Below, one piece after another: positions 8,779 through 36,306 of a stretch of DNA of 64,000 nucleotides. Source of the DNA: a virus. The DNA is taken from IMG/VR virus record IMGVR_UViG_3300028581_000020, positions 40,528 through 104,527 of that record. The stretch is one strand, 5' to 3'. Position 1 is the stretch's first letter. Each line of letters begins with the position of its first letter. The position numbers and the translations under genes are program-made. The notes under the pieces were generated by a model. It was not told where the DNA came from, ran no database searches, and saw nothing but the letters and a program-made list of their open reading frames with translations.

Positions 8779-8779
8779 T

Positions 8780-10650: not shown

Positions 10651-10669
10651 AGGTTCCTTAATATAGTTG

Positions 10670-11083: not shown

Positions 11084-11085
11084 AA

Positions 11086-14000: not shown

Positions 14001-16065
14001 TAGCCAATAATGCTGTACTTCCTGCAGCACAAACCAGGGAGGTCTCTTCTTCTCTCCCAGTAACAAATTCATAGGTATGAAAATCGCTGGAGGTTGCTAT
14101 TGTAATTTTTGGCGGCCTTCCAGCATTATACTCGTCTATTAAATCTTGAACGCCCAAAAGTTTAAATTGTCTTCTTTGGCGAGTTTGTGTATTCGCATAA
14201 AAAACAGAGGTCTTATAAAGCGAAACATCTCCGGCCTCGGGAGGAACATCGTTTGCTTGAACAATTCCTTCACCAGTGGTTTCGTTTGTATAAAGATTTG
14301 CTCCGAGGAAAATGTCAGGAGTGATATCCTGAACAGTTAGAGTTCCATCGGCGAGTTCTGTGTCGGTAGGAAATCCCTCAAATACAAGCTGAAGTTCATC
14401 AGAAGGAACCAGGTCATCAAGAACATCTGTTCCGACCGCAGTTACCTGTGCTGAACGATATACTTGATAAAAGTTATTGGTTGTTGCACTTTCAGGAATA
14501 GTAATTTCGAGGTACGACGTTACTGTCGTTGTAATCGCCAAGTCATCGACAAATTCTTGTCCAAGTTCGTCATTAAATACAATGGTTTTGCTAATAAAGG
14601 CATCTGCATCTGGAGGACCTGAACCTGAATAGGTACTAGCAAATTGTAGGGTGGTTGACGTAACGTTTGTAATTGTTTTGTATCCGTCAATACTAGCACT
14701 AATAAACCCAGAAAGATAAATCTGTTGTCCAATTTGTACATAGTCTCTTGGGTCGCCAACAGAAAATGTTACGGTGTAAGTAGACCCATCACCAGAACAT
14801 GAGGCCGAGTCGATATTGAGAAGTCCGGTGCCCCCCGCGTCATTTGCAAGTAACGACTCGCGTGTAACGTTTTGAAGGGCCGTGATAATGGACTCCAAAT
14901 AAGTCTGTAGGTCTTGAAGTTGTGTGTGGGTCGTGGGAGTTGACGGAGCGGAAGGAACTGTAATATTACGGAAAGTTCCACTAGTAACTGTTGCCGAAGA
15001 GCTTGCAGTTACAGTGCCAGTGGCATCTGTGGTAAAACTTAGGGTATTTGCTGTGGGATCAATTGCTGTAATAGTTCTTAGGCCGTTGAGTGTTCCCGAC
15101 GTTCCAGCCGTAAATCCGGATAGATAAATAACTTGGCCAATATCGAAATATTGTTTAACATTGCCTCCGTCATTTCCTCCAGTAGCAAAGGATACGGTAC
15201 ACGTTGTTCCAGAAATAACGGCAGGAGTTGCTGCTAATTCTAAAGGAATAGCTGCTGAAATTGCTCCGTCATTATCTGCATATAAAATATCGTTGTCAAG
15301 TTTCGCTGTAAGGCCTAATAAATTTGTATATAAATCGTTAGCATCTGAAGAATCCGTCAAGTTATAAATAGCTTGATAGTTTCCATCAGTAATCATGCTT
15401 CCGAATTGATCCAATTGATCGAGTCTAAGAAGTAGATTATTAAAGTCCCTGGCAATAAGCTGCAACATTGGATTGTATAAAATGGTCTGTTCGGAAGGCG
15501 TTCCTAAAATTAGGTTATTGTTTAGGTCTCTTGAGGCCCAAACAACACGGTATGCAACAACCGAGTCTTGCTGAAACCAGGAGGTCTGGTCTCCTAATAT
15601 AACTCCTAAACGAGCGGCAACATCCAAAGCTTTAATACCACCAGCATCGGTAATATAGCCAGCATTTGCGGTAAGATCTGTGGCTGTTTTTGCTGAGATC
15701 TTTTTAATACCAGCAGACGTTGTAAAATATAAATTCCCATTACTAGCAACAAATTTAATACGAAGACCTGGACTAGTTTCTTCATACGAACCGGAAAAAT
15801 CTGTAAAATTCCCAGATCCATCATCAAAAGCTAGAGTATTGTCATAATGTAGGATAATACGGTCACGATAAGCTCTTAGTTGATTAGCTCTTTGTTGAAT
15901 AGAACCAAATGCAGAACCATACAACTTAAAGCCACGACGAGATTCAATGACATTATCACGACGGATAATGACGTTCTCAGCCTTAACAAGACTTCCTGAT
16001 GGAAGGTCAATATTATTAGGCGAATAGTTCAAACCTAGGGCTTTTAAATTAACCTGACTAGGCAT
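11086..16065 (-). CDS. tail nozzle / packaged-DNA stabilisation protein with inserted repeat domains
   Basis: N-terminal ENVIIRRDNVIESRRG, NRIFYSKPGQPEAVP propeller motif, HG-containing small beta-barrel inserts; 1659 aa. Confidence 0.65.
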   Translation of the reverse strand: MPSQVNLKALGLNYSPNNIDLPSGSLVKAENVIIRRDNVIESRRGFKLYGSAFGSIQQRANQLRAYRDRIILHYDNTLAFDDGSGNFTDFSGSYEETSPGLRIKFVASNGNLYFTTSAGIKKISAKTATDLTANAGYITDAGGIKALDVAARLGVILGDQTSWFQQDSVVAYRVVWASRDLNNNLILGTPSEQTILYNPMLQLIARDFNNLLLRLDQLDQFGSMITDGNYQAIYNLTDSSDANDLYTNLLGLTAKLDNDILYADNDGAISAAIPLELAATPAVISGTTCTVSFATGGNDGGNVKQYFDIGQVIYLSGFTAGTSGTLNGLRTITAIDPTANTLSFTTDATGTVTASSSATVTSGTFRNITVPSAPSTPTTHTQLQDLQTYLESIITALQNVTRESLLANDAGGTGLLNIDSASCSGDGSTYTVTFSVGDPRDYVQIGQQIYLSGFISASIDGYKTITNVTSTTLQFASTYSGSGPPDADAFISKTIVFNDELGQEFVDDLAITTTVTSYLEITIPESATTNNFYQVYRSAQVTAVGTDVLDDLVPSDELQLVFEGFPTDTELADGTLTVQDITPDIFLGANLYTNETTGEGIVQANDVPPEAGDVSLYKTSVFYANTQTRQRRQFKLLGVQDLIDEYNAGRPPKITIATSSDFHTYEFVTGREEETSLVCAAGSTALLASSYFNINSGNNENLYYFWFRVDNAGTDPALSGRTGLAIDVLSSDTSSQVAEKVKNCINTLLYDFNAEISSISTSTVLITTLEDGYVDDVVSTLPAGFTFTVTQQGRGEKVTQEVSVVTCVAGSAYAAAGTADYFSVFTPFGKQQYYVWFDRGSATDPNVFGLSGISIDTTGSETADQMAIKIQTALTDTGYFNVSVNTNQLTITSVDYGPTSPTTENVTSGGFTVSTSQEGELQVLLSTITSVGQAVENTAKSFVRVMNKNKGEVTYGYYLPGIDTNPGIMLLEGRDLPVPEFYILANNSTVAESFDPIVAPSVQISNIAAPELQATVTTSTPHGLNNLDKVLITNTDSTPSIDGIRVVTVINSTSFTVPVSTTANGTMGALIPLPSAEVSENEARPNRIFYSKPGQPEAVPLVNYFDVGPLENQILRIFPLRNSLFIFTEDGLYRVSGETGQYILEPFDLSCILIAPDSVDSSNNTIYAWTKKGIVTVTEASVDTRSRAIDTQILKLASSSYTNFATATWGIGYESDDSYLVWTVSNTNDTTATQCFRYSTLTQTWTTYEKQNTCGIVNPVDDRLVIGAGDVNQIEQERKDFTRTDYADRQYSLLLSSSGYPAPNTLEFSSVSDIEVGDVIEQSQTLSVFRFNSLLEKLDIDPSVPSDDYYSTLFAVSGDDMRSKMEALATKLDSEITESPTFSSLIASKTGTITGISVANPTVVTDSAHGLVSGRVITIASTDSFPVINGSREVTVLTANTFTVPVDVTTPGTTGTWSTQVESFQDIMACYNAMIDAMNTSTNFTFTNYSQIEYDTSFEAVVTAVNRNIKKVTLNVSPQFIVGEMTVFKSIPCSVTYAPETMGDPLGWKHLMEATIMFANRAFTKGKMGFSSDLIPLTTYVEFNSSGNGIFGTGTGPFGEGYFGGASNSSPFRTYVPRNYMRCRYINLSFLHSVAREEWSVYGVTISGNVGISTRAYRN

Positions 16066-16068
16066 TAT

Positions 16069-16542
16069 TTATTCCTTTTTTAAAGCTTTTAAACGGCCTT
16101 TAGCGCCCTTTAAGATATCATCATATTCATCAGCAACGGCTCGCCCTTTTATTAGCTGTGGGCTATCTAATGCCTCTAGGGACTTTTCTACGGCCCTACG
16201 AGCCAAAGGAGCGGGCTCTGGTTTAATCTGGATATTATCTAGGGCGTTTCCGGCCTGTTCTATAAATTCCTGACCAGAAGCCGGAACCTTAGCACCTAAA
16301 CCACGAAGGTAGTCTAAAAATTCCTTTTTTTCTATTAGGGGAAGGAGCTTCTTCTGAACAGCATGTTCTAGACTTTCTTCAATGACTGTCGGTCTGATAG
16401 GACCGATACTTCCGACAGCAGAAGCTCCGGATTCTGCTAGTTCCCGAACCCTTTCAGGATCGTTGACATAAGGACGTGATAAGTCGTCAATTCCCTTTTG
16501 GGATTCGGCAATTTTTTGTTTGAGACGTTCTAAAAGACCCAT
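16069..16542 (-). CDS. hypothetical protein; N-terminus similar to 6017-7702
   Basis: KGIDD...RVRELAESGASAVGSI versus KGIDE...KIRDLSTQGASMIGSI. Confidence 0.6.
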   Translation of the reverse strand: MGLLERLKQKIAESQKGIDDLSRPYVNDPERVRELAESGASAVGSIGPIRPTVIEESLEHAVQKKLLPLIEKKEFLDYLRGLGAKVPASGQEFIEQAGNALDNIQIKPEPAPLARRAVEKSLEALDSPQLIKGRAVADEYDDILKGAKGRLKALKKE

Positions 16543-17798
16543 TATGAATTCCTACGCCACCCGTTCCATTTACCGTAACGTAAAATACTGTGTGTATTAT
16601 TAACTTTTTTTGCAGCGCCTTCTACTCGATTAGATATCATCTTATTTTCAGCGCTAATAATGTCTTGAATCTTAGCATTTGTAACTTGTAGTCCGGCTTG
16701 ATCGCCAATTGCTGCTAATACTCTAGCGGAGCTTCTTTCTGCCAGCCCGTTATGAAGATCCGATGGGATTTGCGGGATAATACATTCTCCGGCTGTGCAA
16801 ATATAATCACCAATTTCAAAATTATCGGGAACTACCCCACTAGAAAATGTAATTTGATTGCCAGAAATTGCACTATTTGATAGTAGAATGTCAAATTTAT
16901 ATGTTTTATGCGCTCCGGGGGTTTGTAGAAAGTCGATTTTTGTATTATTCGCGATATTATCGGGAATACTGTCAAACTGAACCACTTGTAATGGACTGAT
17001 AATAATAGCATCCTCGTTTACAGTAGAGAAATCTGTTGTCACAATCGAGTACGAGACAGTTACGGTGGCAGTTGAGGGAGTTCCATTTGATGCTGAATAT
17101 TCTCCGTTGGAATTTATAGCGTTCACTAGATTGGTAGCTGTCAAAATTGAAGATGCGCCAATTAAAAACTCGTTACTTAAAGGAGATCCTGTTACGGCGG
17201 TAAACTGCTGTTCTCCGATAGTTAAAACGTCGCCATCGGCAATCGAAGCATTGTCAATTTCGATATTTTTTAGGAATGCCGTGGCCGTTGCTGCTCTATT
17301 AATTGGAACCAACTGGTTTGGACGCATGAAATAGTACATAACAAGCGAGCCCGTTGGAGACTGATTTGCTCCAGGGGTAATCACAATGTCAGACCCTTCC
17401 AAATAAAATCCCTGAATTACGTCTGGATTCGCTGCATTTTGCTGGAAGAAAGCCTTTTGACCTGCGTCAATTTGCGTCATTTCATACAAATTACCGTAGT
17501 CTTGACCGGGAATAATTTGGTTATCAGCATAAAACACGTCACGAAGTTTATCACCAATAGCACGCTTAGGAATAGCATAGCGAGACTTATTAGATTGTAA
17601 CGGGACAACAACGTACGATACAAAATATTCTTCGTGGTGCTCAAGAATAGCGGGAACTTGTCCGATCATCATCTCCTCGTTAGCAAAATCGAGCAAATCC
17701 TGTTCGGAAAAGGTCGCAGAAGCTATTGGAAACGAGATCTTACGTTTTAGGGCAGCAATAAGCTGCGTGCTATTCATCCAAGACGTTGCATTTGCCAT
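16542..17798 (-). CDS. head-tail adaptor (gatekeeper)-like protein with inserted domains
   Basis: N-terminal FSEQDLLDFANEE, YAIP, and C-terminal PQIPSDLH helices typical of adaptors; lies upstream of the nozzle. Confidence 0.55.
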   Translation of the reverse strand: MANATSWMNSTQLIAALKRKISFPIASATFSEQDLLDFANEEMMIGQVPAILEHHEEYFVSYVVVPLQSNKSRYAIPKRAIGDKLRDVFYADNQIIPGQDYGNLYEMTQIDAGQKAFFQQNAANPDVIQGFYLEGSDIVITPGANQSPTGSLVMYYFMRPNQLVPINRAATATAFLKNIEIDNASIADGDVLTIGEQQFTAVTGSPLSNEFLIGASSILTATNLVNAINSNGEYSASNGTPSTATVTVSYSIVTTDFSTVNEDAIIISPLQVVQFDSIPDNIANNTKIDFLQTPGAHKTYKFDILLSNSAISGNQITFSSGVVPDNFEIGDYICTAGECIIPQIPSDLHNGLAERSSARVLAAIGDQAGLQVTNAKIQDIISAENKMISNRVEGAAKKVNNTHSILRYGKWNGWRRNS

Positions 17799-17807
17799 GG
17801 AAACTCC

Positions 17808-18188
17808 TTAGGCTTTCTTTGCTTTTAGAGCCTCTTTTTTGGCTTGAAGTGAAGCGAGAAGTTCATCAATTTGCTCTTCTGACATTTCTTCACCTTCCAT
17901 GTCATTTTCCGGCTCACGATCTTCGCCGTCATCGGCAATCTCACCAAAACCACCCGCCTGACCTTCAACAATCTCTTCGGCTTTTTCTAGACCAGACTTC
18001 AGCCCCTCGGGAGAGTCGGCGGCAACCGAAACTTTCTTAAGGCCCTGAAGAGGTTCTTTCATAGCACCCATAGCTTCAGAACGAAGGCTGCTAAGAACAG
18101 ACTTTTTGGCATCCTTTTCCATAGGGTCCATTTCACAGTCTTTGCCACCTTTAAGCGACTTTAGCTTTTTTAACATTTCCATTTTCAT
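17808..18188 (-). CDS. hypothetical charged protein
   Basis: AAGGAA RBS; 126 aa, acidic C-terminus. Confidence 0.7.
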   Translation of the reverse strand: MKMEMLKKLKSLKGGKDCEMDPMEKDAKKSVLSSLRSEAMGAMKEPLQGLKKVSVAADSPEGLKSGLEKAEEIVEGQAGGFGEIADDGEDREPENDMEGEEMSEEQIDELLASLQAKKEALKAKKA

Positions 18189-18197
18189 ATTAATTCC

Positions 18198-18434
18198 TTA
18201 CTTAAGGTTTAGTGATGCAGAGCCCGAGCCTGCGCCAGAAGCCGCGATTGCTTGCGTAGTAGTGCGCGTAGCAATTTCGATCTGAGCGGGAGCACCGGCA
18301 GTAATCTGAAGAAGAAGGTTTAGGACTTGCTGGACTACTTCATGGGGTTTGGTGCTGTCTAGTTGTAGTTGCTGCGTCACTTGTCCGCAGTCTAGGGCTT
18401 GAGTCTCGATACGAATCATTACATAACCGGCCAT
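18198..18434 (-). CDS. hypothetical (possible structural) protein
   Basis: AGGAGA RBS; 78 aa. Confidence 0.65.
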   Translation of the reverse strand: MAGYVMIRIETQALDCGQVTQQLQLDSTKPHEVVQQVLNLLLQITAGAPAQIEIATRTTTQAIAASGAGSGSASLNLK

Positions 18435-18443
18435 AATATCTCC

Positions 18444-18893
18444 TTATTTTAGAGCTAACAAAATCAACGTCAGAACAATTCCAACGCTGTTAATAATATA
18501 TAGTAAGTTCATGTTTTTATGTTCTGTTATCGTCTTTTCAATAATAACAGGCTTCTCAATGACTTGGTATTCCGTGATATATTTAGGAATCTCTACGATC
18601 TGCACTTCTTTGACAATAACCGGAACTTCGATTTTCTCGATTTGAACTTCTTTAACGACAATAGTTTTTTCAACTTCAAAGGGCTCTTTGACAATCTCAG
18701 GAATCTTAATTTCTTGTATTTCTTTGACAATGACAGGAACCTCGATCTTCTCAATCTTAATTTCTTGTGGGGCAGTTTTGATTTGCGACGAAATCACAGG
18801 CATTTCGCCGTTCACAATAAGAACTCTGGTTGCATTCATGTTCTCGTCATGCGTATCGCGGATAATTTGGTTTGAGTCTTTAAGAGTTAGCAT
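18444..18893 (-). CDS. EKIEVPVIVKE-repeat protein with C-terminal TM
   Basis: Tandem V/I/E/K/P repeats and a hydrophobic C-terminus. Confidence 0.7.
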   Translation of the reverse strand: MLTLKDSNQIIRDTHDENMNATRVLIVNGEMPVISSQIKTAPQEIKIEKIEVPVIVKEIQEIKIPEIVKEPFEVEKTIVVKEVQIEKIEVPVIVKEVQIVEIPKYITEYQVIEKPVIIEKTITEHKNMNLLYIINSVGIVLTLILLALK

Positions 18894-20443
18894 TATACCG
18901 CCGTCGTGATCGCTCTAAATTTCATTGTTAATGCTGAGAATCCCGAATAGTTAGCCGAGGTATACTGAATTTGTCCGGCGTCCGTAATAGTAAAAACGAC
19001 AGAAGAGGCGTCGCCCACGGAAGTAATCCCCAATACCCAATCGGCCCCTCTTTGAATACCATTCAGTCTAAATTGCTCGAATAAATCACTAGTAGCATCC
19101 ACAGAAACACTCACCAAAGCTTCAAAACTACGAACAGACGCATTTGAAAACGCAAGACCAGTAACGTTTGCTGGTGAAGATTGGTTGTTTGCTCCAGAAA
19201 ATGAGGTTTGGTTAATATCGCCAGTTGAGGCGGTCGGAACTGAAGCCCACGAAAGAGTTCCCGACCCATTAGTTGATAATACCTGACCAGTTGTTCCACT
19301 ACTATCAGGGAAAAGAAGGGTCCTATTTGCTGTCAGTGTTTGTGGAATTGAAAAATCGTAACTAAAACCTGATCCGTCTGCGTCTCTCATTGAGAGTGTA
19401 TTGGCGGTTTGGTTCATTTTGAGTGTGGCGGAAAGTCTTGTTCCAGAAAGCCCAGAACCGGAAGCTCCACCAGTTGGGGAAACGTATAGGTTAATAGCAC
19501 TTCCGTTTGATCCACGACCAGAAGAGGCCGTAATATTGATATTACCGCCGTTAAGATCTGATCCGGTTCCAGCAGCACTGGAAGAAATAGATATTGCGCG
19601 ACCAGGAACTCCAGCACTGGGAGTCGTCACCGAAATTGCGGGACTTGTATTGTCAAAATTAAGGTTTGTGTTGATAGCTACAGACGCTAAATTAGATAGC
19701 GCAGTATTTGCTCCAGAGCCAGAAGGCGTTGTCCAAGTGCCATCAGCACGTAAGAAATTAGACGTTCCACCACCAGATGCGGGAGCAAGACCCTTTAAGG
19801 AAGTGGTAAAGTTATCTAGGAGTGCAGTTACCTGTGTTCCGGTAAGGTCTGATGGGGACGTTGAGCCGCCTGTAGCGTTACCTTTAATAGTGGTGGCCGC
19901 CATGTTTGCAAGTTTTGCGTTAGAAACTGCGTTATTTGCAATAGTTGCTGCAGCAGATCCCGGACCAGAGGCGGTTACATCGCCAGTAAGGTCGGTAATA
20001 TAATTACCAGTGGACTGCTTGCCGTTTAATTGTGTTTGAATATCAGAAGTTACTCCTGATAGGTATTGAAATTCTGAGCTTGTTACAGAACCATCTGCGA
20101 TTTTAGTTGCATCAATTCCAGAAGAAAGAGTTGTTGCCCCGGTATTACTAATGGTAACAGCTCCGGACATGGAAACCGCTGTGGCTAAATTTGAAGAATT
20201 ACCAACAAAAATTTGGCCGTCTGTCAAAGAATATCCGCTGTCGGTGTTTACCCAAGCGCTACCATTCCATACCCAAATTCGACCAGTATCAATGGCAACG
20301 CGAGCATCACCAGTAGTATTTCCAGAGGAAGGCAAAGCCGCCTGATTAGCGACAGCAGATTGCCAGGTGATTGCGCCACCACCTCCACCACCACCTACGA
20401 GGTCGAACTGGCCTGTTAGGCAATTGTATCGGTAACCGGCCAT
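18893..20443 (-). CDS. tail fibre-like protein
   Basis: S/T/G-rich; LTGDVT, FLRADGTW, GQVLSTNGSGTLSW fibre motifs. Confidence 0.75.
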   Translation of the reverse strand: MAGYRYNCLTGQFDLVGGGGGGGAITWQSAVANQAALPSSGNTTGDARVAIDTGRIWVWNGSAWVNTDSGYSLTDGQIFVGNSSNLATAVSMSGAVTISNTGATTLSSGIDATKIADGSVTSSEFQYLSGVTSDIQTQLNGKQSTGNYITDLTGDVTASGPGSAAATIANNAVSNAKLANMAATTIKGNATGGSTSPSDLTGTQVTALLDNFTTSLKGLAPASGGGTSNFLRADGTWTTPSGSGANTALSNLASVAINTNLNFDNTSPAISVTTPSAGVPGRAISISSSAAGTGSDLNGGNINITASSGRGSNGSAINLYVSPTGGASGSGLSGTRLSATLKMNQTANTLSMRDADGSGFSYDFSIPQTLTANRTLLFPDSSGTTGQVLSTNGSGTLSWASVPTASTGDINQTSFSGANNQSSPANVTGLAFSNASVRSFEALVSVSVDATSDLFEQFRLNGIQRGADWVLGITSVGDASSVVFTITDAGQIQYTSANYSGFSALTMKFRAITTAV

Positions 20444-20444
20444 T

Positions 20445-21080
20445 TTATTTCTTCCTCATTGCTTTATGGGCATAATTATCGGTCTGTTTATGACAAACAT
20501 GACATAACGTTCTACAGTTCGAAGCCTCAAAACGAAGTTCTGGGTAATTGCACCACTCTTTAATGTGGTCCATTTCTAACGATTTTCCTTTTTTGCTACA
20601 TATTTGGCAAGAATAATTGTCACGTTTAAGAACTAGAATTCGTAACTCTCGGTATTCAATACTAGAACGAAGTCTTTGTGATTCAGAGGTTTTTCCGCCA
20701 TCCCAACGATTTGAAAGCGGTCCTCGTTTACCTAATTTAGCGGCTCTCTGTTTTTGTCTTCCGGCTTCGGTGCTTAATGACTCAGGATTAAATAGCGCAC
20801 GATATAATACTGGCTTATTCGATCTTTTACTTCCCCTTCGTGTTTCTGAAGCTTTTCTTTTAGCTTCGGGACAAGAATGGCCAATCTTAAGACCCTCTAA
20901 GTTGAAATTAATTTCCCCGGCAGCAATCTGACACTTCTTACACTTATCCTTAGTGTTTCCCTTTTCAATATTCCATTTTTGAGCATAAGAAACAATTCTT
21001 TCATGCTGACAATCTGGGCAAACGCAAATCCATTTGGTTTCACGCCGCGTAACGTCGGGATTGATTGGAACTAGCATCAT
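20445..21080 (-). CDS. HNH homing endonuclease (NUMOD3-like plus HNH)
   Basis: RWDGG, RDNYSCQIC, MDHIK, NCRTLCHVCH; free-standing among structural genes. Confidence 0.85.
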   Translation of the reverse strand: MMLVPINPDVTRRETKWICVCPDCQHERIVSYAQKWNIEKGNTKDKCKKCQIAAGEINFNLEGLKIGHSCPEAKRKASETRRGSKRSNKPVLYRALFNPESLSTEAGRQKQRAAKLGKRGPLSNRWDGGKTSESQRLRSSIEYRELRILVLKRDNYSCQICSKKGKSLEMDHIKEWCNYPELRFEASNCRTLCHVCHKQTDNYAHKAMRKK

Positions 21081-21084
21081 ATAA

Positions 21085-21354
21085 TTAACTAATCCGTTCG
21101 GCTGAAACTAAAACGTCACGATTTCCATTCGTATAAATAATTCTGAGCGAGTACAGAGCAATTCCGTTCTCAGAAAATGCATAGGTTTCTGTGTCATTAG
21201 AAACCGTTGTGGTGCTAATGGTCATCTCAACTTTATTACCAATAAGACCAACAAGAAACCCATTGGTAGAGATTGTCTTATCTACGTCATTAAATACAGA
21301 ACGAATAGCTTGTGCCATGTCTTTATCGGACATTGGCTTTGTGGTGTTTGCCAT
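21085..21354 (-). CDS. hypothetical (possible structural) protein
   Basis: 89 aa; TAATG coupling with the upstream gene. Confidence 0.65.
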   Translation of the reverse strand: MANTTKPMSDKDMAQAIRSVFNDVDKTISTNGFLVGLIGNKVEMTISTTTVSNDTETYAFSENGIALYSLRIIYTNGNRDVLVSAERIS

Positions 21355-21557
21355 TAGTCACCCTTCATGTGTTTTTTAATCTTGGACCATTTACCTTTAG
21401 ACTCGGGAAGCTTTTTATAGGCTTTCTTCCCTTTATTATCGGATGTGAATTCTTTGGCCTTTTCTGGCGAAAGACTTTTAGGAGCGTCAAACATATTCTC
21501 TTTATTATTTTGGACAGCTTTCATAAAGCGAAATTGACGTTTTGAGACGCTAGGCAT
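21354..21557 (-). CDS. small basic hypothetical protein
   Basis: MPSVSKRQFRFMKAV-type small phage protein; begins 2 nt after the fibre stop codon. Confidence 0.65.
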   Translation of the reverse strand: MPSVSKRQFRFMKAVQNNKENMFDAPKSLSPEKAKEFTSDNKGKKAYKKLPESKGKWSKIKKHMKGD

Positions 21558-21559
21558 AA

Positions 21560-22880
21560 TTAGTTTCCGACCCTCTCGACGTTGAAATAAGTATTTGCAG
21601 TAGTTCCCGAAATTGTGAGTGTGCTTGCCGAGTTGTTTCCAAGGCCGTATAGGAAGATTTCAACGTAATCCCCAGCATTCAACTGAAGCGTCGTGCTTCC
21701 ATTGAACGCGTTGATTGTCGTTGCGGCAGATGTTCTGTACCCAAACAGACGAGCGGACGCTCCGTTTTTGTAGAGGTAAAGCCCGTAATCAGATGCGAGC
21801 ACGTTAGCTGAGGCGAGCAGGACTGCGGAGCTTATGCGGTACTTACCCGATACGGGTGCAGTGAATCTGCTGTTTGCTGAGCTAAATGATCCGGTCGTGT
21901 CAAACACTGCGGAAGAAAAAGCTACCTTAACGAAACTATTATTCGTCGCGATCCCTGTTTGGTTAGACCCTCCAAGTGTTGCATCCATCGCGACTGTTTC
22001 ACTCGCCGCGATCTGCGACGGGCCGGAGATACGCGAGATTGAGAAGTAGTTGTCAACAACACTACCTCCGACATTCAATGCTCCACCTGAGTTTTGGAAA
22101 ACTTGAATCCCTACCGTGTCCCCTGCATTGAACAAATATTCTGTTGCACCATTCAAAAACGTACCTGCAGAAGCCGTAGGGTCGAATATGTATGCCAGTG
22201 TGCGGATATTGCTTCCGTTTACACGCAGACGAACCTCACGACCGTTCGTCGAGCTTGCGGCAAAACTTACTTGAGTCGTAATCCTATACCAGCCGGGGAC
22301 TGGAATCGTGTAGAGACTTGTACCGGTATTCCAAGCCCCGTGCGTGTCGCTGATTGCGGCATCGAACGCTACGAGTGTTCCGGTGCTGTCTGGAATTGAC
22401 TGAGTGGCTGCGCGGCCTGTAGTCATTGCCACGACGCGAGTGTCCGTCTCAGACGACATCTGCACTTGAGACGACCATCCGGTGATGGGGACGAGGAAAG
22501 ATCCGCCAAAAACCGTGTTGTTGGCCCAAGCCGTCCCTAACGTGCCATTGAAATAATTATCTGCCTGTTGGCTAATGATTGCGACCGTTGTTGGAGAACC
22601 TGTGGCTACGAGAATATTGCCTGACCATGGGGTTTTAGATGCGGTAAGCGCCCCCACAACAGAGTTGTTTACGGCTCTAGTTATGTCCATAGAAAGGCCG
22701 CTTGGCAGCGAAATAGAAACTGGTGATCCAGAATTTGTTCCAGAAGTAACTGTAAACATGACTTCAAGAGAATCACCTACGCGCCGATACTTGGCGATAG
22801 ATGCAGAAACAGTTCCTAGGCCAACGTATGTCGGAGTGTAGCTCTGCCAGTCCGTGACTGGCGTTCCCTGCGTGATGATC
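21560..22880. repeat. direct repeat copy 1 (shared fibre C-terminal module)
   Basis: Ungapped match to 59822-61142 at offset 38,262; identical over 21560-21599, 21605-21769 and 22431-22822; mostly synonymous differences elsewhere. Confidence 0.97.
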
Positions 22881-23500
22881 TGCGGAGAGACGCGGACGTC
22901 GGATAGCGCCATCGTGTAGGCGGATGCCGACGTGCTGCCAACGTGGATACAGAGGCGGTAGCTGGTCGAGTTAGAGGCTGCCTGGAAAGTGCCTCTCCAA
23001 CTTTGTTGAACAGTGGTGCTTTCAATCGAAGAAGGGGCCGGTTGAATCAAAATCGAGTTGGTAACATCGTAGATCCAGACCGAAAGATCGCTCGTGGCGT
23101 AAGTCCCGCTGACTACCTCGTAGGGGAACGTAATTTGCAGGACTTTACCTTTGTCGGAATTATCAATCGTGAATGCATTCGAGACCCCGTTGCCTTGCCG
23201 GTTGTTTGCATCCTTGACGAGGTTGAAGTCAGCTCCCGGACGAAGCGGCGTTGTGGTCGAGCGCGAGATCGCAAACGTAGGGCTACCGCCCGTGCAATCG
23301 ACCGGAGAGCTGGCTGCCGAATCAGCATACCCCGCCCATCCGAGAGTATCTTTTCTAGCGTAGGCGTTTTTTATGTAGTTGCGGGAAGAGCTTGATCCGC
23401 TGTCGAGGAAATCTGCATCTAAAAACCTAGGGGTTTGCGCAAACGTAGTGCTCGCCCCAAGGGCTGCCGCTGCCAGTAAGAGGCGTTTGAAAAATTTCAT
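21560..23500 (-). CDS. fibre / receptor-binding protein with signal peptide and tandem C1q-like domains
   Basis: Leader MKFFKRLLLAAAALGASTTFA-Q; C1q-like motifs YTIPVPGWY and FTAPVSGKY...LNAGDYVEI; AAGGAG RBS. Confidence 0.8.
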   Translation of the reverse strand: MKFFKRLLLAAAALGASTTFAQTPRFLDADFLDSGSSSSRNYIKNAYARKDTLGWAGYADSAASSPVDCTGGSPTFAISRSTTTPLRPGADFNLVKDANNRQGNGVSNAFTIDNSDKGKVLQITFPYEVVSGTYATSDLSVWIYDVTNSILIQPAPSSIESTTVQQSWRGTFQAASNSTSYRLCIHVGSTSASAYTMALSDVRVSPQIITQGTPVTDWQSYTPTYVGLGTVSASIAKYRRVGDSLEVMFTVTSGTNSGSPVSISLPSGLSMDITRAVNNSVVGALTASKTPWSGNILVATGSPTTVAIISQQADNYFNGTLGTAWANNTVFGGSFLVPITGWSSQVQMSSETDTRVVAMTTGRAATQSIPDSTGTLVAFDAAISDTHGAWNTGTSLYTIPVPGWYRITTQVSFAASSTNGREVRLRVNGSNIRTLAYIFDPTASAGTFLNGATEYLFNAGDTVGIQVFQNSGGALNVGGSVVDNYFSISRISGPSQIAASETVAMDATLGGSNQTGIATNNSFVKVAFSSAVFDTTGSFSSANSRFTAPVSGKYRISSAVLLASANVLASDYGLYLYKNGASARLFGYRTSAATTINAFNGSTTLQLNAGDYVEIFLYGLGNNSASTLTISGTTANTYFNVERVGN

Positions 23501-23509
23501 ATCTCTCCT

Positions 23510-26500
23510 TTAGATTCCGTTACGAGCAATTTCGACAACTGCGGCAAGACCCGCATCCCAACGAAGACGAATGATGGAGCCCGCTTGCCCGCGCCAATCC
23601 CCCTGCAGGAGGACGGTCGAGGATGCGGCTAGGTCACAGTAGTTTGCGTTCGAGGTCCCGAGGATTTCAATCTCAGCTCCGTCAACCATACTCGAGGTCG
23701 TGATCGTGAACGTCTGAGCCGAGCCCCCCGTGTACCTAAAGCGCTGTGCCGGAGAATTCGTGGGCGTAATCGAGGAGCCGGTGAAGTTCGACTGATCGGG
23801 CGTCTTTGCTCCGCCGGTAGATAGCACCACATCCCAGCGCGTATCCGTCGTGTTGTAGACGAGCAGTGCGCCCTCGTTGAGCTTCAGCACGAGGTCCCGT
23901 GCCTGCGGGCAACGGATACGGTTTGCGGAAGTAGATCCCGCCCCCTGATGGCTGATCGTCACATCTGCGGTAGCGGACGTGTTCACAACCCATAGCATTC
24001 GCGGCGAACCGCCCCCTGAAATCCCACCAACTGTGCGTGCAGTGGCGGGAGCCAGACGGAACACGGTGATTCCCGTTGAGGTTACGTCATCGGTTGTGCC
24101 GGTCGCGGTCGAGTCGTCTACGTCGATAGCGAGGGTGCCGTCTAAGTGCAGTGTCTCAGCCGGGGATGCTTTGTTGACGCCCATCCGCGAGGTCGCAGTC
24201 AGTGTAAGCATTTCGACCGGAGTCGTTGATGCGTCGGGCTTCACGAAGAATCCGAGATCGGCGCCCTTACCGTTGGTTGTGCCGACTCCGCGCAGGATGG
24301 CGCGGATGTAGCCTACCAGGCGAGTACTGGCCGAAGGGGAAGTGCCGTTGTTAAGCGAGAAGAATTGCAGAATTCCTGCGATGTCGCTTGCTGCCGGGCT
24401 TGCGCGGTTGTTGCCGAGTGCTAGTGCGCCGTAGGAGTTCGCACCTGTCGCGTCGCCCATCACGTTCACGCGGCCTTCGGTCGTAACCGCGGTGCCGATC
24501 GGATCATCGCTCGTCGGAGTGCTCCCGAGAGTTAGCCGGAAGTTTTTATACCAGCGGGCAATCTCGATGTTGTTCACCCGGAACGGGATTTTGAAATCAT
24601 CGATCGTACCGAAGAACTTCTCAGCCAGCACCGTGTTGCCATCGAGCGTCCAACCGGATCCGCCGCCAGAGCCAGAGCCAGATCCGCCCACCACCTGCCA
24701 GCGGCTTGATGCGGTCTCGTAGTAAAGAATGACGGCGGCACCGTCGGCCATTGCTATGGCCGCGCCCGTTCCCGTGCGGATACGGTTTGCAGCGGTGCCG
24801 CCCGTGTCGTCGTTGAGGTTGACGGATGCGCCCGTGCGGTTGATGAGAACCAGGAACGTGGCATTTGGCGGCGCCGGAATCATGTCGATCGAAGTCAGCG
24901 ACCCGTCGGTAACAAGCAAGCTCGTCTTGGTCGGAGTCGCAAGCGTGGCGTTTGCGCCGGTCGCGGCTGCGTCCGTCTGCTCAGATCCCTGAAGCGTTGC
25001 CAAGGCGCGCAGGGCTGCAACAAAGCTCTTAGCTCCGCCGAAACTCTGTGCCGCGGTGCTGACCGATCCGGGGTTGGTTGCGTCTGCCGGCTGAATCGTA
25101 AGGGTGTCTGCCACAAGCGTCGCGCCAGACGTGCCTGGAGTAGACCCAAAAGTCGCAAGCGAGAGGGAGCTTCCGCCAGCACCTTGGAAACTGCGCCAAG
25201 TGCCGCTCGTCATACAGAAGAAAAAGACTTTGGAGCCACTGGCCAGCGCAAAGGCAGCGTCGGCGGCACCCGCGTCGATCGCCTCGCCCGAGGCCGGGAA
25301 CACGTCGCAAGAGGCAGCGCCCGAGTTCTGCACGTAAAGCTGCATGCCCGCGACTGCCGCGGGGAGCTTGACTGAATCGTTTGCGGTGGCGCACACGCTC
25401 ACGCGGTTTTGCTGTTTAGCAAGCTGGGTTGCGGAAGCCTGTCCGCCGCCCGCAAACGCGGTGATTGTGTCGGCAGCCGAGAACATCACGTAGGCTTGCG
25501 CAATGATGTTGTTTGCGAACGTCTTCACACCCGCGATCGTTTGCGCGATGGCGGTGAGTAACCCCGGCTGGGATCCGTCTGCCGGCTGCAGGGTGAGGAC
25601 TTGGCCTGAGAGCGAGGCGCCGTTTGCAGAGGGGGAGCTGCCGACGGCTGCAAGCGACACATCGCCTGAGTTCGTTCCCGCGATGTCAGCGTCACTAGAG
25701 AAAGTCAGCGAACGCGCGGCGTTTTTGAGATCGATCGTGAGGTCACGATCGGCGTCCTGCGTGACGCTACTCGTGAAAATGAAGCGCGAGAACCAAGACG
25801 TGGACGTTTCTTTGATCGAAACACCCGTCACGAATTTCTTCAAGCCCGCAATCAACTGCGTGAGAGTTGAGACGCCGCCGGGGTTGGTTGCATCTGCCGG
25901 CTCCATGTTTAGCACAGCACCAGAGAGCGTAAGGCCGTTTGCGTTCGGGGCCGTGCCAAATCCTTGCAGGGTGACGGTCGCGGGACCGGCAGGACCAACG
26001 GCGCCGGCAGGACCCGGGGGGCCTGCGATACCCAAGTACTCGGACGGATCACGCGCCTGCACGCCGGTACCGTCATCTGAGATTGAGAGAACTTTACCGG
26101 CGTTGATTGCGAGGTCGGGGAAAGCCTTATCCCGATCAGGCGAGGTGGAACCAAAAAGTAGCGCCCGCCGCATGCGGCCGACCACTTCCTGTACTTGCTG
26201 CACGATACGATCAAGCGTGCGCTCGTTCGTCTCAGGCGGGAAGATCCCCGTCGAAATGTAATCCGTTTCCTGTGTGACGGGCGTCACTCGACGAACGAGT
26301 ACGCGCTGCGTGGCGGTCGGAGTCGAAACTGTGACTACCGCACTACCAGGGTCGCCGCCCGAGATTGAATACTGCCCGGGAGCTGTGAGCGTTGTCTCGG
26401 TGACTGCTGTCGGCACCGTGTAGTCGCGTAGGATGACTTGCACCTGCGAGTTGGCAGTGAACGCAAAGGGGATTGCGAATGAAGTCGTAACTCCGTCGCC

Positions 26501-26539
26501 CTGATAAATCTGCTCGGTCGTCGTGTTAGAGATCGTCAT
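23510..26539 (-). CDS. tail fibre protein (T7 gp17-like N-terminal anchor)
   Basis: YQGDGVTTSFAIPF...RRVTP...ERTLDRIVQQVQE anchor; short collagen stretch; three ~47-aa repeats. Confidence 0.9.
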   Translation of the reverse strand: MTISNTTTEQIYQGDGVTTSFAIPFAFTANSQVQVILRDYTVPTAVTETTLTAPGQYSISGGDPGSAVVTVSTPTATQRVLVRRVTPVTQETDYISTGIFPPETNERTLDRIVQQVQEVVGRMRRALLFGSTSPDRDKAFPDLAINAGKVLSISDDGTGVQARDPSEYLGIAGPPGPAGAVGPAGPATVTLQGFGTAPNANGLTLSGAVLNMEPADATNPGGVSTLTQLIAGLKKFVTGVSIKETSTSWFSRFIFTSSVTQDADRDLTIDLKNAARSLTFSSDADIAGTNSGDVSLAAVGSSPSANGASLSGQVLTLQPADGSQPGLLTAIAQTIAGVKTFANNIIAQAYVMFSAADTITAFAGGGQASATQLAKQQNRVSVCATANDSVKLPAAVAGMQLYVQNSGAASCDVFPASGEAIDAGAADAAFALASGSKVFFFCMTSGTWRSFQGAGGSSLSLATFGSTPGTSGATLVADTLTIQPADATNPGSVSTAAQSFGGAKSFVAALRALATLQGSEQTDAAATGANATLATPTKTSLLVTDGSLTSIDMIPAPPNATFLVLINRTGASVNLNDDTGGTAANRIRTGTGAAIAMADGAAVILYYETASSRWQVVGGSGSGSGGGSGWTLDGNTVLAEKFFGTIDDFKIPFRVNNIEIARWYKNFRLTLGSTPTSDDPIGTAVTTEGRVNVMGDATGANSYGALALGNNRASPAASDIAGILQFFSLNNGTSPSASTRLVGYIRAILRGVGTTNGKGADLGFFVKPDASTTPVEMLTLTATSRMGVNKASPAETLHLDGTLAIDVDDSTATGTTDDVTSTGITVFRLAPATARTVGGISGGGSPRMLWVVNTSATADVTISHQGAGSTSANRIRCPQARDLVLKLNEGALLVYNTTDTRWDVVLSTGGAKTPDQSNFTGSSITPTNSPAQRFRYTGGSAQTFTITTSSMVDGAEIEILGTSNANYCDLAASSTVLLQGDWRGQAGSIIRLRWDAGLAAVVEIARNGI

Positions 26540-29500
26540 AGCGTAGGCTCCCCTTTTCGTTTCGCCCGTTGCTGGGTTTTAAGCATAGTTGATTCTTCGT
26601 CTTTTGAAATACCCATGATGGACCGAATTTGTGCACGCGCGTTTTCAACCACGTCACGGTCCACCGTTTGCCCAAGCGCGGTCGAGCGCGCAACTTGAGC
26701 ACCCAAGAATTGTTCCCGGATATCCGGGAATTCCAGGAGTAGTTGTTGTTTTGCAGCGGCGCGGTACATGCCCACCATTTCTGCAATGACGGTGCGTTTG
26801 TTTTCGTCGGTACGGTAGGCCTCCGGGATGCCGGGCTTCCCATCCAATTGCCGAGCGTAGTCGGATTTAATGAGCGCCCCAAGCATGTCCTTAAGGTTTG
26901 GAACCTTTTGGTCCCGTTCCTTAGGTGCTTTTTTGATCTCATCGATCGAGCCAAGGCCGTGCCCCGCCGCAAGCTCTACAAATCGATTGTACTGCTCACT
27001 GGTTAGGTTCACGGGGAAGCTGTCTTTGCCGTCCACGTAGGCGAACGAGATATTGCGGGGAGGCATGTCCACCATGAGGTGGCTCTGCCCGGCAAGGGGC
27101 TTCGGCTTGACGAGCGGACCCGATACTCCCAGGCGAACAAGCTCTTCCCGGATGGGATCGTCTTTTGCAGGGGAGTACTTGAACGGGTTCACCAGGGCGA
27201 TCGCGGAGAGGATCGCAGGGCCCGTTCCCTGCGGGTGTACAACCTCTTCACCGAAGAGGTTTAGCTGCGGCATGCCCACACCAAACGAAGCTTTCAGGGG
27301 CTTCACCACTGACTCCCAAGCGCCGTCCTGTGCCCCAAGCTTTGTGTCGATTTTCTTATCCCCAAAAGCTCTGTTTACTTGCTTGAACAGGTTGGGCGTA
27401 AGCGACGAGGCGAAGTTATCTGCCAGTTTTTTCCAAGCTGACGTGGGCGCACCGTCCCGAAGCAACTCGAGCACTTTTCCGAAATCGTCGGTGAGTACGT
27501 CGGGAACTGCCGCGGAGGCAATGTGCGCGGCCCCCGCAAGTGTGAGGTCTTCAAACCCCTGCATGTCCCCATCCGGGCTATCCCAGTAGGCTGCGAGCTC
27601 ATGTAGATCGGCGGCAATACCGAGCAGGGTCCCTACGCCTCCCAAGGCTTGGTAAGAGAAATACCCGTCCCCAACCTTGATAGAGTTAGGTTGCCAGCCA
27701 GTGTCCTCGAGCGCTTTGCGCGCCTGCCAGTTTGTGGGACCGGCGCCCGTGATGACGCCCTCAACGGCGAGTAGCCCACCAAGCCCCAGCATCGACGTGC
27801 CTACTGCTACCTTACCGAGCGCTACGTCCCGAGCGGTACCGCCGGAAGCCATCGCTTCCTTGAATCCGGGGGTGAGCATCGCAAGGCCAGGGAATCGCTG
27901 CAACACTTGATCCGTTTGGTTGATGTTGATTTTGGTAAACGGAACCAGCATGCGGAACATCGGGTTCTGCGAGATTCCGTCGTATAATTTTGTGAATATC
28001 TCCGGGGTGTAGTTCAGCGTGCGCTGCCCCGCCTCACGCGCGGCCATCATGTTGATGTGTGCCGGCGGGAACTGCGTCATCTCCTTCACCATTTTTGTGT
28101 AGGCATCGCCCGTAAGGCCCGCTGCCCGGGCGGTGCGAACGGCAAGAGCGTTGGTTTGCATGCGATAGATCGTAGCCTTAGATGCTACGTCGGCGGCGTT
28201 CAGCGCACGCCCAGGAATACGAATTCCAGAGCCGATGAAATCCATCGCGTCGGCCCAGACGCCATGCAGCCCGTTGGCGGCGCCAGTCAAAGTAGAGGGA
28301 CGCTCAAGCGCCATCAGCTTCGAGCCGCCCGCAGTTAGAAGGGGATCGCTCGTGCGCCACGCCTTGAAGTAAGCAATCCAACCTTCCTTGAGGCCCTGCC
28401 CAAGCGACAGCACCGTAGCGTTAGACTCGGCGAGTGAAACGGCCTCACTTTGCACCTTGTTTGCAAACGCCGTGTAGGTTGCGTCAATCTCTTCCGCTGG
28501 CATCCCACCGAAGAAAGACGAAAGTTCATCCACACTAAGACGTGTGGCAGGGTTACCTTTGCCGCCTACGATTGAGCGCATTTTCTGGACAGCCCAAGCC
28601 GCGTACTTCTCGGGGATTAATCCAATGGTGTTCACCAGGTTGTTGGCGACGTTTACGGTCTGCGTGAGCGGCCCGGAAAGTAAGCTCATAACCCGCAGCT
28701 CTTCGCCCATCGCTGCGAGGTGCCCAAGTCTCGAGCGATTACTCATCCAGGAGAAGTGCTTCACCTTCTCTGCGGGGGACATCCTAGACATCATGTCCAC
28801 GATTGTTGCCGCTTGCTTCTGAATCTGCTCCTTACCGCCAGCGACGGTAAGCACGTCCTTTGCAGCGAACATCTCTGCAACGGGGAACGCAGTCACATTC
28901 GACAAGTCCGCCGCACGCGTGGCAAGACCGGCTTCCTTTGTCCCGGCTTTAAACAACGCCATGGAATCAAGCGTGAGCATCTTCGATCTCTCGAAAGCAG
29001 CAATTACCTCATCGCTCGCATTCGGAGCAGCGGCAGCTATCGCTTTCTCAACACTGTCCTGCACGGCGTTAACAAAGAAAATTCCAGCACCTTTTACCTC
29101 AACGGCATTCCACCCTTGGCCAGGCACCTTAGTAGTAAGCCGGCTAACATCTTCGCCGAGGAGCTTGAACGCATCAGCAAGTACCGACTCATCGCTAACA
29201 ACTCCGCGAGCAATCGTCTCAAAGCCTTCCTTGTTCGCGGCTACAATATTTGAAACCACGCGGCGGAAGTCATCGACAGACCCCATCGTGGGCACGTTAT
29301 CTAGATTGAACCGCTTCGTGGCCTCGGTCGCCGGAGCCTGCAATTCTTCTAGGCTGAGCATACGCAAGTTCTGCGCTTGGCGCATTACCGTGGGCTGCTC
29401 AACTACCCGGGCTGCGTCGAGAACACCACGCCCTTCGGCCACTGCAGCGGAAACCGCAGATGCGTCTGCCGTGATTGTCTCCCCGCCCGAGTTTACAAGG

Positions 29501-30480
29501 GTGTGCCCTCGCGCGGTCGCTGCCGCATCCAGGGGAGCCTCAGTTGCACCTTCCTGGGCTGCCTTACTTGCAATGGCTTGCGCCTCGTCAACCGAAGGGG
29601 CAATTGCCTGCCCGGCCTTATCGACGGCAGTGTTTTCTGCAGTGACCTTTACTTCCGTCTTTGCCGCAGCTCCGGCGGCGCCCTCAGCAACTTCAGTGCC
29701 TACTTTGGAGACGCCTCGGAAGGATTTGTAGACCTTCATTGCGCCAACAAAAACTCCGGCAAGTGCGGCGTCGCCCACGATGCTCGTGACGAAGTTTTTG
29801 AAGCGGCCTTCGGCCTCGGTGTCAGTTTCCTTGGCTGCCCAGTAATCGACAATTCCGTTCTGGAACATCGGGAATCGCTGAACAAAGTTAGCGATATTCC
29901 CCTCGTGCGGGTCGGCCGTAAAATAAGAAGATACGCCTGCAGCGGCAGCGCTGGCCCCCACAGAAACAATCCCAGGTGCAGCCATAGCCGCAGCGCCTAC
30001 GCCTGTTCCAATCGCGGTCGCAAACTGGGTTACAAACTTCCCAGCTCCCCGGAATGCACGCTCTGTGTCGGTCGTAGACGGGGGAGCCAGGTCTTTGCCA
30101 AACGTGAACACACGATCGTCATCGATCAAATCTGTTTCTTTGATCCCGGTGGTCGTAAGCCAGTTATCGACCGAGTTGATGAGATCATGCCCGGCCTGTA
30201 CAGCACCACGTGCGACATCTACCGCACCTGCGGCAAACTGCTTCATCGGTTTCCCGCCGGACAATTCATCCGCGCGGGTAGCCACACCCGAGAGCTCATT
30301 TGCAGGGGGGGTTGCCTTTGGGGCGGGCCCCTCCTGCGGCTGCTGTTTTGCAAGCAGTTCGTCTGCCGGAGCTCCGAAAATATCTTTCTCGAGTTGAGAG
30401 ATTCGGTTGTCTTGTGACCCCGCAATTTCACGGTCTAGTGCGTAGCCGCGTTCCATCGGAGACAGATTTGTCGTATCCAT
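26536..30480 (-). CDS. large internal virion / ejection protein (gp16-like position)
   Basis: About 1314 aa from ATG 30480 (TAATG overlap); ITGAGP...GWQPNSIKVG motif typical of podovirus inner-core proteins. Confidence 0.7.
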   Translation of the reverse strand: MDTTNLSPMERGYALDREIAGSQDNRISQLEKDIFGAPADELLAKQQPQEGPAPKATPPANELSGVATRADELSGGKPMKQFAAGAVDVARGAVQAGHDLINSVDNWLTTTGIKETDLIDDDRVFTFGKDLAPPSTTDTERAFRGAGKFVTQFATAIGTGVGAAAMAAPGIVSVGASAAAAGVSSYFTADPHEGNIANFVQRFPMFQNGIVDYWAAKETDTEAEGRFKNFVTSIVGDAALAGVFVGAMKVYKSFRGVSKVGTEVAEGAAGAAAKTEVKVTAENTAVDKAGQAIAPSVDEAQAIASKAAQEGATEAPLDAAATARGHTLVNSGGETITADASAVSAAVAEGRGVLDAARVVEQPTVMRQAQNLRMLSLEELQAPATEATKRFNLDNVPTMGSVDDFRRVVSNIVAANKEGFETIARGVVSDESVLADAFKLLGEDVSRLTTKVPGQGWNAVEVKGAGIFFVNAVQDSVEKAIAAAAPNASDEVIAAFERSKMLTLDSMALFKAGTKEAGLATRAADLSNVTAFPVAEMFAAKDVLTVAGGKEQIQKQAATIVDMMSRMSPAEKVKHFSWMSNRSRLGHLAAMGEELRVMSLLSGPLTQTVNVANNLVNTIGLIPEKYAAWAVQKMRSIVGGKGNPATRLSVDELSSFFGGMPAEEIDATYTAFANKVQSEAVSLAESNATVLSLGQGLKEGWIAYFKAWRTSDPLLTAGGSKLMALERPSTLTGAANGLHGVWADAMDFIGSGIRIPGRALNAADVASKATIYRMQTNALAVRTARAAGLTGDAYTKMVKEMTQFPPAHINMMAAREAGQRTLNYTPEIFTKLYDGISQNPMFRMLVPFTKININQTDQVLQRFPGLAMLTPGFKEAMASGGTARDVALGKVAVGTSMLGLGGLLAVEGVITGAGPTNWQARKALEDTGWQPNSIKVGDGYFSYQALGGVGTLLGIAADLHELAAYWDSPDGDMQGFEDLTLAGAAHIASAAVPDVLTDDFGKVLELLRDGAPTSAWKKLADNFASSLTPNLFKQVNRAFGDKKIDTKLGAQDGAWESVVKPLKASFGVGMPQLNLFGEEVVHPQGTGPAILSAIALVNPFKYSPAKDDPIREELVRLGVSGPLVKPKPLAGQSHLMVDMPPRNISFAYVDGKDSFPVNLTSEQYNRFVELAAGHGLGSIDEIKKAPKERDQKVPNLKDMLGALIKSDYARQLDGKPGIPEAYRTDENKRTVIAEMVGMYRAAAKQQLLLEFPDIREQFLGAQVARSTALGQTVDRDVVENARAQIRSIMGISKDEESTMLKTQQRAKRKGEPTL

Positions 30481-32524: not shown

Positions 32525-32527
32525 CCC

Positions 32528-36253: not shown

Positions 36254-36306
36254 TCGGCTGCTCCCTCCCACCCCTGGGTGGCTATGATATAGCCCAGAAC
36301 GGAAAC

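Follow-up and report, generated by a model that had tools for sequence, protein, structure and literature searches.

A putative receptor-binding module shared by unrelated lake phages, and the probably chimeric viral contig that carries it twice

Two copies of one adhesin gene in a viral contig

The IMG/VR virus record IMGVR_UViG_3300028581_000020 is a linear contig of 104,527 bp, rated 91% complete, and all runs containing it are lake-water metagenomes. Its final 64 kb (64,000 nucleotides, hereafter the window) were analysed here with regard to two related adhesin genes, gene A and gene B. The guanine-cytosine (GC) content splits the window in three (0.40 at 1-21559, 0.56 at 23501-59821 and 0.40 at 62672-64000); the GC-rich middle represents one phage, termed H, and the two AT-rich sides represent another, termed L. 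Both genes encode a module of four domains (D1-D4) with three conserved linkers, and the features needed for their comparison are as follows.

21560..23500, minus strand: gene A, 646 aa, with signal peptide, D1, D2, D3 and D4; as printed most likely a hybrid, H-type down to the 392-bp block and L-type from 22430 to the stop codon
59822..62671, minus strand: gene B, 949 aa, with a 342-aa fibre-type N-terminal part of L followed by D1-D4; as printed most likely a hybrid, L-type down to the 392-bp block and H-type from 60692 to the stop codon
22431..22822, minus strand (second copy 60693-61084): exact block of 392 bp, aa 227-357, comprising D2 and linker 2 (PITGWSSQVQMSSETDTRVV); most likely the point at which the contig switches phage
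21605..21769, minus strand (second copy 59867-60031): exact block of 165 bp, aa 578-632, inside D4; probable switch point in other assemblies
21770..22430, minus strand: two-allele stretch with D3 and the first half of D4; differences mostly synonymous, with synonymous divergence (dS) of 0.22 from 22430 to about 22100 and about 1.1 from there to 21770
22865..23380, minus strand: the beta-sandwich domain D1, aa 41-212, conserved throughout the family; synonymous sites saturated between A and B
22823..22864, minus strand: linker 1 (PVTDWQSYTPT), identical as protein, with six synonymous and one non-synonymous nucleotide differences; upstream edge of the exact block

The last 607 residues of gene B aligned with gene A, and the only gap, one residue long, was placed close to the N-terminus of D1. 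Between the stop codon and 23380, the two copies were gap-free at an offset of 38,262 bp, and the homology ended one base past the stop codon. There were 80 mismatches in 21559-22880, and nucleotide identity was 57% in 22881-23380. The first-pass annotation of this DNA had described patchy identity with exact runs of 392 and 165 bp, and the ungapped comparison together with a codon analysis bore this out to the base. An exact run of 392 nt would arise by chance with a probability of ca. 4e-10, and one of 165 nt with a probability of ca. 0.003, given 70 mismatches in 1,264 nt.

The divergence between the copies was layered, as had been proposed, with at least four classes of dS along the gene. 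In D1 (aa 41-212), dS was saturated and non-synonymous divergence (dN) was 0.29-0.45. The corresponding values of dS and dN were 1.3 and 0.03 in linker 1, ca. 0 and 0 in the 392-bp block, 0.22 and 0.016 in D3, 1.08 and 0.028 in linker 3 with the first half of D4, and 0 and 0 in the 165-bp block; the final 14 codons had a dS of 0 and three non-synonymous changes. The dN/dS of 0.03-0.07 in D3-D4 indicated strong purifying selection. The region between the exact blocks was C1q-like with mostly synonymous differences, as shown by Pfam matches to BclA_C and C1q, structural Z scores of 16-19 and the codon analysis, and the 392-bp block coincided with one domain, namely D2 of an AlphaFold2 model (aa 224-340) plus linker 2. 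Upstream, where similarity had been noticed mainly at the protein level, each copy followed its own genome: the GC content at third codon positions (GC3) of D1 was 0.64 in copy A and 0.37 in copy B, matching the genes of H (0.68) and L (0.31-0.33), respectively. The GC3 of D2-D4 was 0.49 in both copies. Outside the fibre genes, H and L had one weak protein match and no nucleotide match, in agreement with the earlier view that their backbones are unrelated.

Exchange of the module and origin of the nested layout

In the record, H lies nested in L. The alleles of the two copies were assigned to the phages by the mean depths of Logan contigs and by the cluster members P0125 and P0123. In run X1, the probable source run, the L flank had a depth of 15.4 (8.1-kb contig) and the H flank a depth of 45.2 (25-kb contig), and the 392-bp block formed a single 392-nt contig with a depth of 59.5, corresponding to the sum of 45.2 and 15.4. 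At 22331-22460, the copy B allele had a depth of 43.7 and the copy A allele a depth of 22.3; the latter had a depth of 26.1 at 21740-22160, and isolated variant sites in this run resolved to the copy B allele. Therefore, the D3-D4 printed in gene B belongs to the abundant H and the D3-D4 printed in gene A belongs to L. By these depths, the native H gene consists of the N-terminal part of copy A with D3-D4 and the terminus of copy B, and the native L gene of the reverse. In run X12, the pieces seen were A-type D1, B-type D3-D4 and the H flank, and no others. Furthermore, P0125, on a contig of 38,399 bp, had A-type D1, B-type D3-D4 and the B-type terminus, which is the haplotype predicted for native H. 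P0123, from contigs of at most 88 kb, and P0124, whose 124-kb contig additionally encodes an exact P0002, combined B-type D3-D4 with the A-type terminus; thus, the switch between phages lies in the 165-bp block in those assemblies.

The moving join point, the three-fold depth step and the free-standing H contig together point to a graph ambiguity at a repeat shared by two genomes. Most likely, the nested phage of 38,262 bp is an assembly chimera and the two printed genes are reciprocal hybrids of the native H and L genes. The assembler would have entered the circular H from L via the 392-bp exact block and exited through the same block. Several observations weigh against this explanation. In samples with both phages, no read or contig spans the 392-bp block; the assignment of alleles to phages is based on mean contig depths; and the 38,399-bp contig is known here from its length and protein alone. 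The nested layout is also present in no fewer than two further assemblies, of 88 kb and 124 kb, an outcome that a real cointegrate would likewise produce. Finally, the "exact" blocks may contain a few single-base differences, because minor variants are lost from Logan contigs. The concern that the identical blocks are a collapsed consensus of two alleles was examined at the contig level: in run X1, the block is one 392-nt contig at summed depth without alternative letters, but such contigs can hide rare single-base variants.

Alternatively, the contig could be real. A single crossover between H and L in the 392-bp block within a co-infected cell would yield a Campbell-type cointegrate of at least 104 kb with no need for an integrase, and the printed sequence is exactly that of such a crossover. 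Nested contigs elsewhere (88,010 and 124,122 bp, the latter containing P0002 and P0124) and the depths, which fit a mixture of a cointegrate at 15x and free H at 30x, are in line with this possibility. However, the switch point varies between the 392-bp block here and the 165-bp block in P0123 and P0124, as expected from graph ambiguity and less so from one stable cointegrate. Both copies in the 124-kb contig have B-type D3-D4, i.e., one allele used twice, and free H occurs on its own contig of ca. 38.4 kb. In addition, a genome enlarged by 38 kb should exceed an L-sized capsid, judging from headful packaging limits, and H has the layout of a lytic podovirus. None of the H open reading frames (ORFs) scanned, with some small ORFs outside the scan, matched an integrase. 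An integrated prophage was not supported either: besides the lack of an integrase among the scanned ORFs, the flanking "repeat" is the homologous gene of 1.3-1.8 kb itself and not a short attachment-site repeat. We therefore consider a genuine cointegrate unlikely, and an assembly chimera remains the preferred origin of the nesting.

Independent of the nesting, the exchange of the module was documented by a third phage, termed T. An exact-pattern scan of viral contigs for the junction with the H flank had T's contig as its sole match, and the junction of the L flank with the stop codon was absent from the viral contigs scanned in the same way. A degenerate pattern across the 392-bp block matched only T among viral contigs; neither this pattern nor a 50-mer inside the block matched any metagenome contig in a collection that seems to lack these lake samples. 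T is the IMG/VR contig 3300028569_002826 (34.5 kb, GC 0.58) and carries a gene of 644 aa. Over the 1,569 bp between 23128 and the stop codon, this gene differs from the copy A allele at a single position, 22612, and it diverges upstream of 23129. Past the stop codon, T is identical to the H flank for ca. 78 nt and then has 69% identity. Its backbone has only the adhesin gene and the next gene (72% amino acid identity) in common with H, and two weak extra matches to L. T occupies a separate contig of 18,367 nt in runs X13 and X14, with depths of 19 and 15 and no H sequence among the pieces examined; therefore, the T haplotype is not a graph artefact. The absence of H backbone pieces from these runs, where small L pieces were present at a depth of ca. 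2, was not used as evidence.

Once the alleles are assigned to the native genes, T agrees with H over 23128-22431 and with L over 22822-21560, and its flank is H-like. Read at the sequence level, this pattern is the signature of a conversion patch. The exchange of the module between unrelated phages is real, as the first-pass annotation had proposed; it had been framed as involving two phages, and at least three carry the module. With at least three phages involved, direct recombination between H and L is unnecessary. We thus regard as probable an overall explanation in which a modular receptor-binding protein, composed of D1, a variable beta domain D2, D3 and D4 with three conserved linkers, circulates among at least three unrelated phages of the same lake, and in which the nesting is a chimera of assembly.

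Two side observations concern related contigs. In P0124, on the 124-kb contig, D1 is H-type except at aa 118 and 123, where the residues are T-like; the protein is either another natural recombinant or a hybrid made in assembly, given ca. 700 identical bases common to H and T. P0122, which is T's protein, also occurs on a contig of 140,601 bp, far exceeding the 34.5-kb IMG/VR record of T, and this contig may be another chimera.

The exact blocks might themselves be products of assembly, if bubble-popping had written the majority allele into both copies and rendered the layers partly artificial. Both copies do derive from one assembly graph, and isolated variant sites (21600-21604, 22182 and 22202) were collapsed to one allele in Logan contigs. 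Nevertheless, T, from samples in which H was not seen and L had a depth of ca. 2, carries the same 392 bp with one change and the same 1,569 bp. The block edges agree to the base between the IMG/VR record and the Logan assemblies, and such collapse cannot produce the contrast in dS of 0, 0.22, 1.1 and saturation. We hold this explanation to be distinctly improbable. That the module was inherited or acquired only once, with uneven identity reflecting uneven constraint, is highly improbable: the linkers and D1 are indeed conserved across the family, so constraint does vary along the protein, but protein constraint leaves synonymous differences and dS ranges from 0 to saturated within one gene, the exact block spans D2, which is among the least conserved domains of the family (mean pairwise identity 0.31), and three phages with unrelated backbones carry the block.

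Under the favoured explanation of a circulating module, the alternation of identical segments with segments of slight, strong and saturated divergence would reflect several homologous-recombination or gene-conversion events with different ages or donors. D2-D4 would act as a circulating cassette, and D1 would have settled into the composition of each genome. The GC3 of D2-D4, which lies between 0.68 and 0.32 and fits neither genome, suggests that the cassette may circulate too fast to ameliorate.

Linkers had also been proposed as crossover points. In the H/L/T trio, the breakpoints in line with this are the two limits of the 392-bp block, at aa 226/227 and aa 357, and the end of the gene. Four other breakpoints lie inside domains, at 23128/23129 (aa 124/125, mid-D1), at ca. 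aa 470 (D3) and at aa 577/578 and 632/633 (D4). The wider family was represented by 119 more distant homologues from a protein search, leaving out the module's own cluster. Per-domain identities across these homologues were uncorrelated and single-domain replacements were common; in one example, identities were 0.99 in D1, 0.88 in D2, 0.35 in D3 and 0.89 in D4. Mean pairwise identity was 0.30-0.32 in D2-D4 and 0.60-0.67 in the linkers. Breakpoints were called with a two-state hidden Markov model with column-specific background, the first pass having been confounded by the conserved N-terminal part of D1. Downstream of aa 240, 20 of 24 breakpoints (17 of 21 after de-duplication) fell in the windows of linker 2 and linker 3, which cover 14.7% of the length, and in D1, which is conserved throughout the family, breakpoints were scattered. 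These calls were made at the protein level on non-independent pairs, and selection against chimeric domains would yield the same clustering as a preference for crossover in linkers; both points count against the mechanistic reading. Thus, on the alignments, linker junctions appear to hold as a family rule where the domains are too diverged for internal recombination, and the rule fails among near-identical alleles such as those of H, L and T.

Protein architecture and the surrounding genomes

In gene A, Pfam detected BclA_C (PF18573; 46.3 bits, cut-off 38) at aa 373-492 and C1q (PF00386; 42.3 bits, cut-off 23.7) at aa 515-616, and gene B gave the same result. An AlphaFold2 monomer model built with 60 homologues had a predicted local distance difference test score (pLDDT) of 81.5 (81-86 overall among the models). 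It comprised an N-terminal helix (aa 2-13), a disordered stretch (18-37), D1 (40-210), D2 (224-340), D3 (357-492) and D4 (503-646), with low-confidence linkers. The predicted D3 and D4 each matched C1q/TNF domains and phage knobs with Z scores of 16-19 and a root-mean-square deviation of ca. 2 A over 125-139 residues, the matches including Caprin-2, C1QL, EDA, the phi812 spike knob and the cyanophage A4 tail. In these models, D3 and D4 are tandem C1q/TNF-like jelly rolls that are mutually homologous, and D1 and D2 had no detectable relation to either of them. The placement of the domains relative to each other differed between the two predicted models. A single-chain pseudo-trimer, with D2, D3 and D4 packed like a C1q head, was rejected as not reproducible: two domains could be superposed on single-chain TNF/C1q trimers at 5.4 A in one model, but at no better than ca. 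24 A in the second.

The N-terminus of gene A has a further feature.

23435..23500, minus strand: Sec-type signal peptide MKFFKRLLLAAAALGASTTFAQ; closely preceded by an AGGAG ribosome-binding site, with the ATG 9 nt past the stop codon of the upstream gene

The copy in phage T begins with a different, equally typical Sec signal peptide, MKKILGLLLLVGSVASAS (L003:9944-10010). By a simple rule on hydrophobicity and charge, 16 of 121 family members had signal-peptide-like N-termini, with two or three more recognised by eye (ca. 15%). Virion fibres are normally made in the cytoplasm. Gene A had no match to the T7 gp17-type tail-attachment domain (PF03906), and the signal peptide and ca. 20 disordered residues precede D1. 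Because a Sec signal peptide abuts D1, neither a shaft nor a gp17-type adaptor is present and H already has a gp17-type fibre, the module in H and T could be an exported protein and not a virion fibre, which we consider unlikely. A secreted module might mask the receptor used by competitors such as L, or might stop progeny from sticking to debris. If this were true, its repeated exchange with the fibre of L would represent an arms race of mask versus adhesin and not a common adsorption device.

The genomes around the two copies comprise the following features.

23501..59821: backbone of the pelagiphage-like phage H, GC 0.56, with a full podovirus gene set; unit length 38,262 bp
23510..26539, minus strand: T7 gp17-type tail fibre of H, 1009 aa, directly upstream of gene A
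59079..59822, minus strand: 247-aa gene of H, whose start overlaps the stop codon of the fibre gene (TAATG)
1..21559: backbone of phage L on the downstream side of the fibre gene, GC 0.40, with another 40.5 kb of the record upstream of the window
62672..64000: backbone of phage L on the upstream side of the fibre gene, reaching the contig end

The gene set of H included TerS, TerL, portal, protease/scaffold, capsid, tail tube A and B, internal virion proteins, the gp17-type fibre, primase-helicase, DNA polymerase and endolysin. Its TerL had 42-46% identity to those of HTVC/EXVC pelagiphages and the Methylophilales phage Venkman. The 1009-aa fibre matched PHROG tail fibre/tail protein families over aa 1-129 (E-values down to 4e-23) and Pfam Phage_T7_tail (PF03906, an adaptor-like N-terminus) with an E-value of 0.0026, below the cut-off. 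The 247-aa protein had no Pfam or PHROG match. A homologue of its gene follows the same fibre gene in phage T (L003:11878-12597; 72% amino acid identity, first ca. 78 nt identical), and the protein might assist the adhesin as a chaperone or partner. At the matching position, L has a different small gene of 67 aa (21354-21557). At the end of an H-phage ORF, an imperfect tandem array at 48056-48313 on the plus strand, with a 12/18-nt period, encodes Ser/Asp/Tyr-Gly repeats (SGDGSGDGYGYG...).

L spans at least 66 kb with a GC content of 0.40 and encodes a ribonucleotide reductase, an RNA ligase, a DnaB-type helicase, a DNA polymerase and many homing endonucleases, including several HNH genes. Its RNA ligase gene (L103:10528-12738, upstream of the window) is seemingly split by a LAGLIDADG homing-endonuclease segment in an intein-like layout. 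Two genes downstream of the adhesin, aa 100-245 of a 516-aa protein (18893-20443, minus strand) contain short stretches that are highly similar in hundreds of unrelated viral contigs, and this protein is probably another mosaic fibre component. A search with it found no L-like backbone; the matches were hundreds of unrelated mosaic fibre genes.

Hosts, known systems and implications

The first-pass annotation had concluded that both phages infect the same host and track the same receptor. A shared host or receptor of H and L is plausible, given the recent exchange, the purifying selection in D3-D4 and their co-occurrence in at least 11 runs. However, GC3 values of 0.68 in H and 0.32 in L argue for different long-term histories, and T or other carriers could mediate the transfer instead of direct contact between H and L; the claim is thus not carried beyond plausibility here. 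Hints at a host consisted of one 2-kb contig in a Burkholderiales metagenome-assembled genome (MAG) among genome contigs and, among phages, one spring-water phage and a partial match in a Methylophilales phage, which is too little to name a host.

The exchange is of a known kind, namely adhesin swapping at conserved motifs, and stands out by three-way near-identity across a 16-point GC gap and by the shuffling of whole domains. In T-even phages, segments of the adhesins gp37 and gp38 are exchanged at conserved motifs (Tetart et al. 1998, as cited in Trojet et al. 2011, PMC3157838). The two systems are alike in that variable domains, here D2-D4, lie between conserved linkers in which the family breakpoints cluster. 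Unlike in gp38, the units here are whole folded domains of ca. 110-145 residues and not short hypervariable loops, and the partners have unrelated backbones with a 16-point GC difference instead of belonging to one superfamily. No gp37 or gp38 family was found among the Pfam results or structural match lists of gene A, and the likeness concerns the mode of working only.

A second comparison is provided by HTVC010P-like pelagiphages, in which C1q-domain genes beside the tail fibre were proposed as receptor-binding proteins, with a C1q part that is hypervariable between concurrent lineages (Mizuno et al. 2014, PMC3909814). Like these podoviruses, H has a C1q-domain gene directly after a gp17-type fibre gene, besides the 42-46% identity in TerL. 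Unlike them, H is a GC-rich freshwater phage, and its module combines D1 and D2 with a tandem pair of C1q-like domains; moreover, the unrelated AT-rich phage L carries this module joined to a fibre shaft.

Classical examples of fibre genes moving between unrelated phages come from P2, P1, Mu, lambda and T-even phages. The present case resembles them in the near-identity of receptor-binding DNA in unrelated genomes and in homology that ends at the gene boundary. It differs in involving uncultured lake phages, three partners, several layers of divergence and a cassette with GC3 intermediate between the recipients. Likewise, metagenome chimeras are known to form at exact repeats shared by genomes and longer than the assembler word size; here too, two replicons are joined at an exact repeat, with a depth step at the join and a join point that varies between assemblies. 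In contrast to the usual case, the repeat is itself a biological product of recombination.

These results have implications for viral records and for phage biology. The IMG/VR record most likely joins two viruses, as apparently do two or more sister contigs, including those of 88 kb and 124 kb. This suggests that shared fibre cassettes repeatedly give rise to viral "genomes" that are chimeric and to hybrid fibre genes that neither phage possesses. Identical fibre DNA alone is unfit for assigning a common host, because a third phage can be the intermediary. In addition, the homologues define a large uncultured family of adhesins whose domains appear to be swapped whole at conserved linkers. Within it, H, L and T probably provide a clean natural case of one receptor-binding cassette moving among lake phages of very different composition and architecture, with a GC3 that fits none of them.

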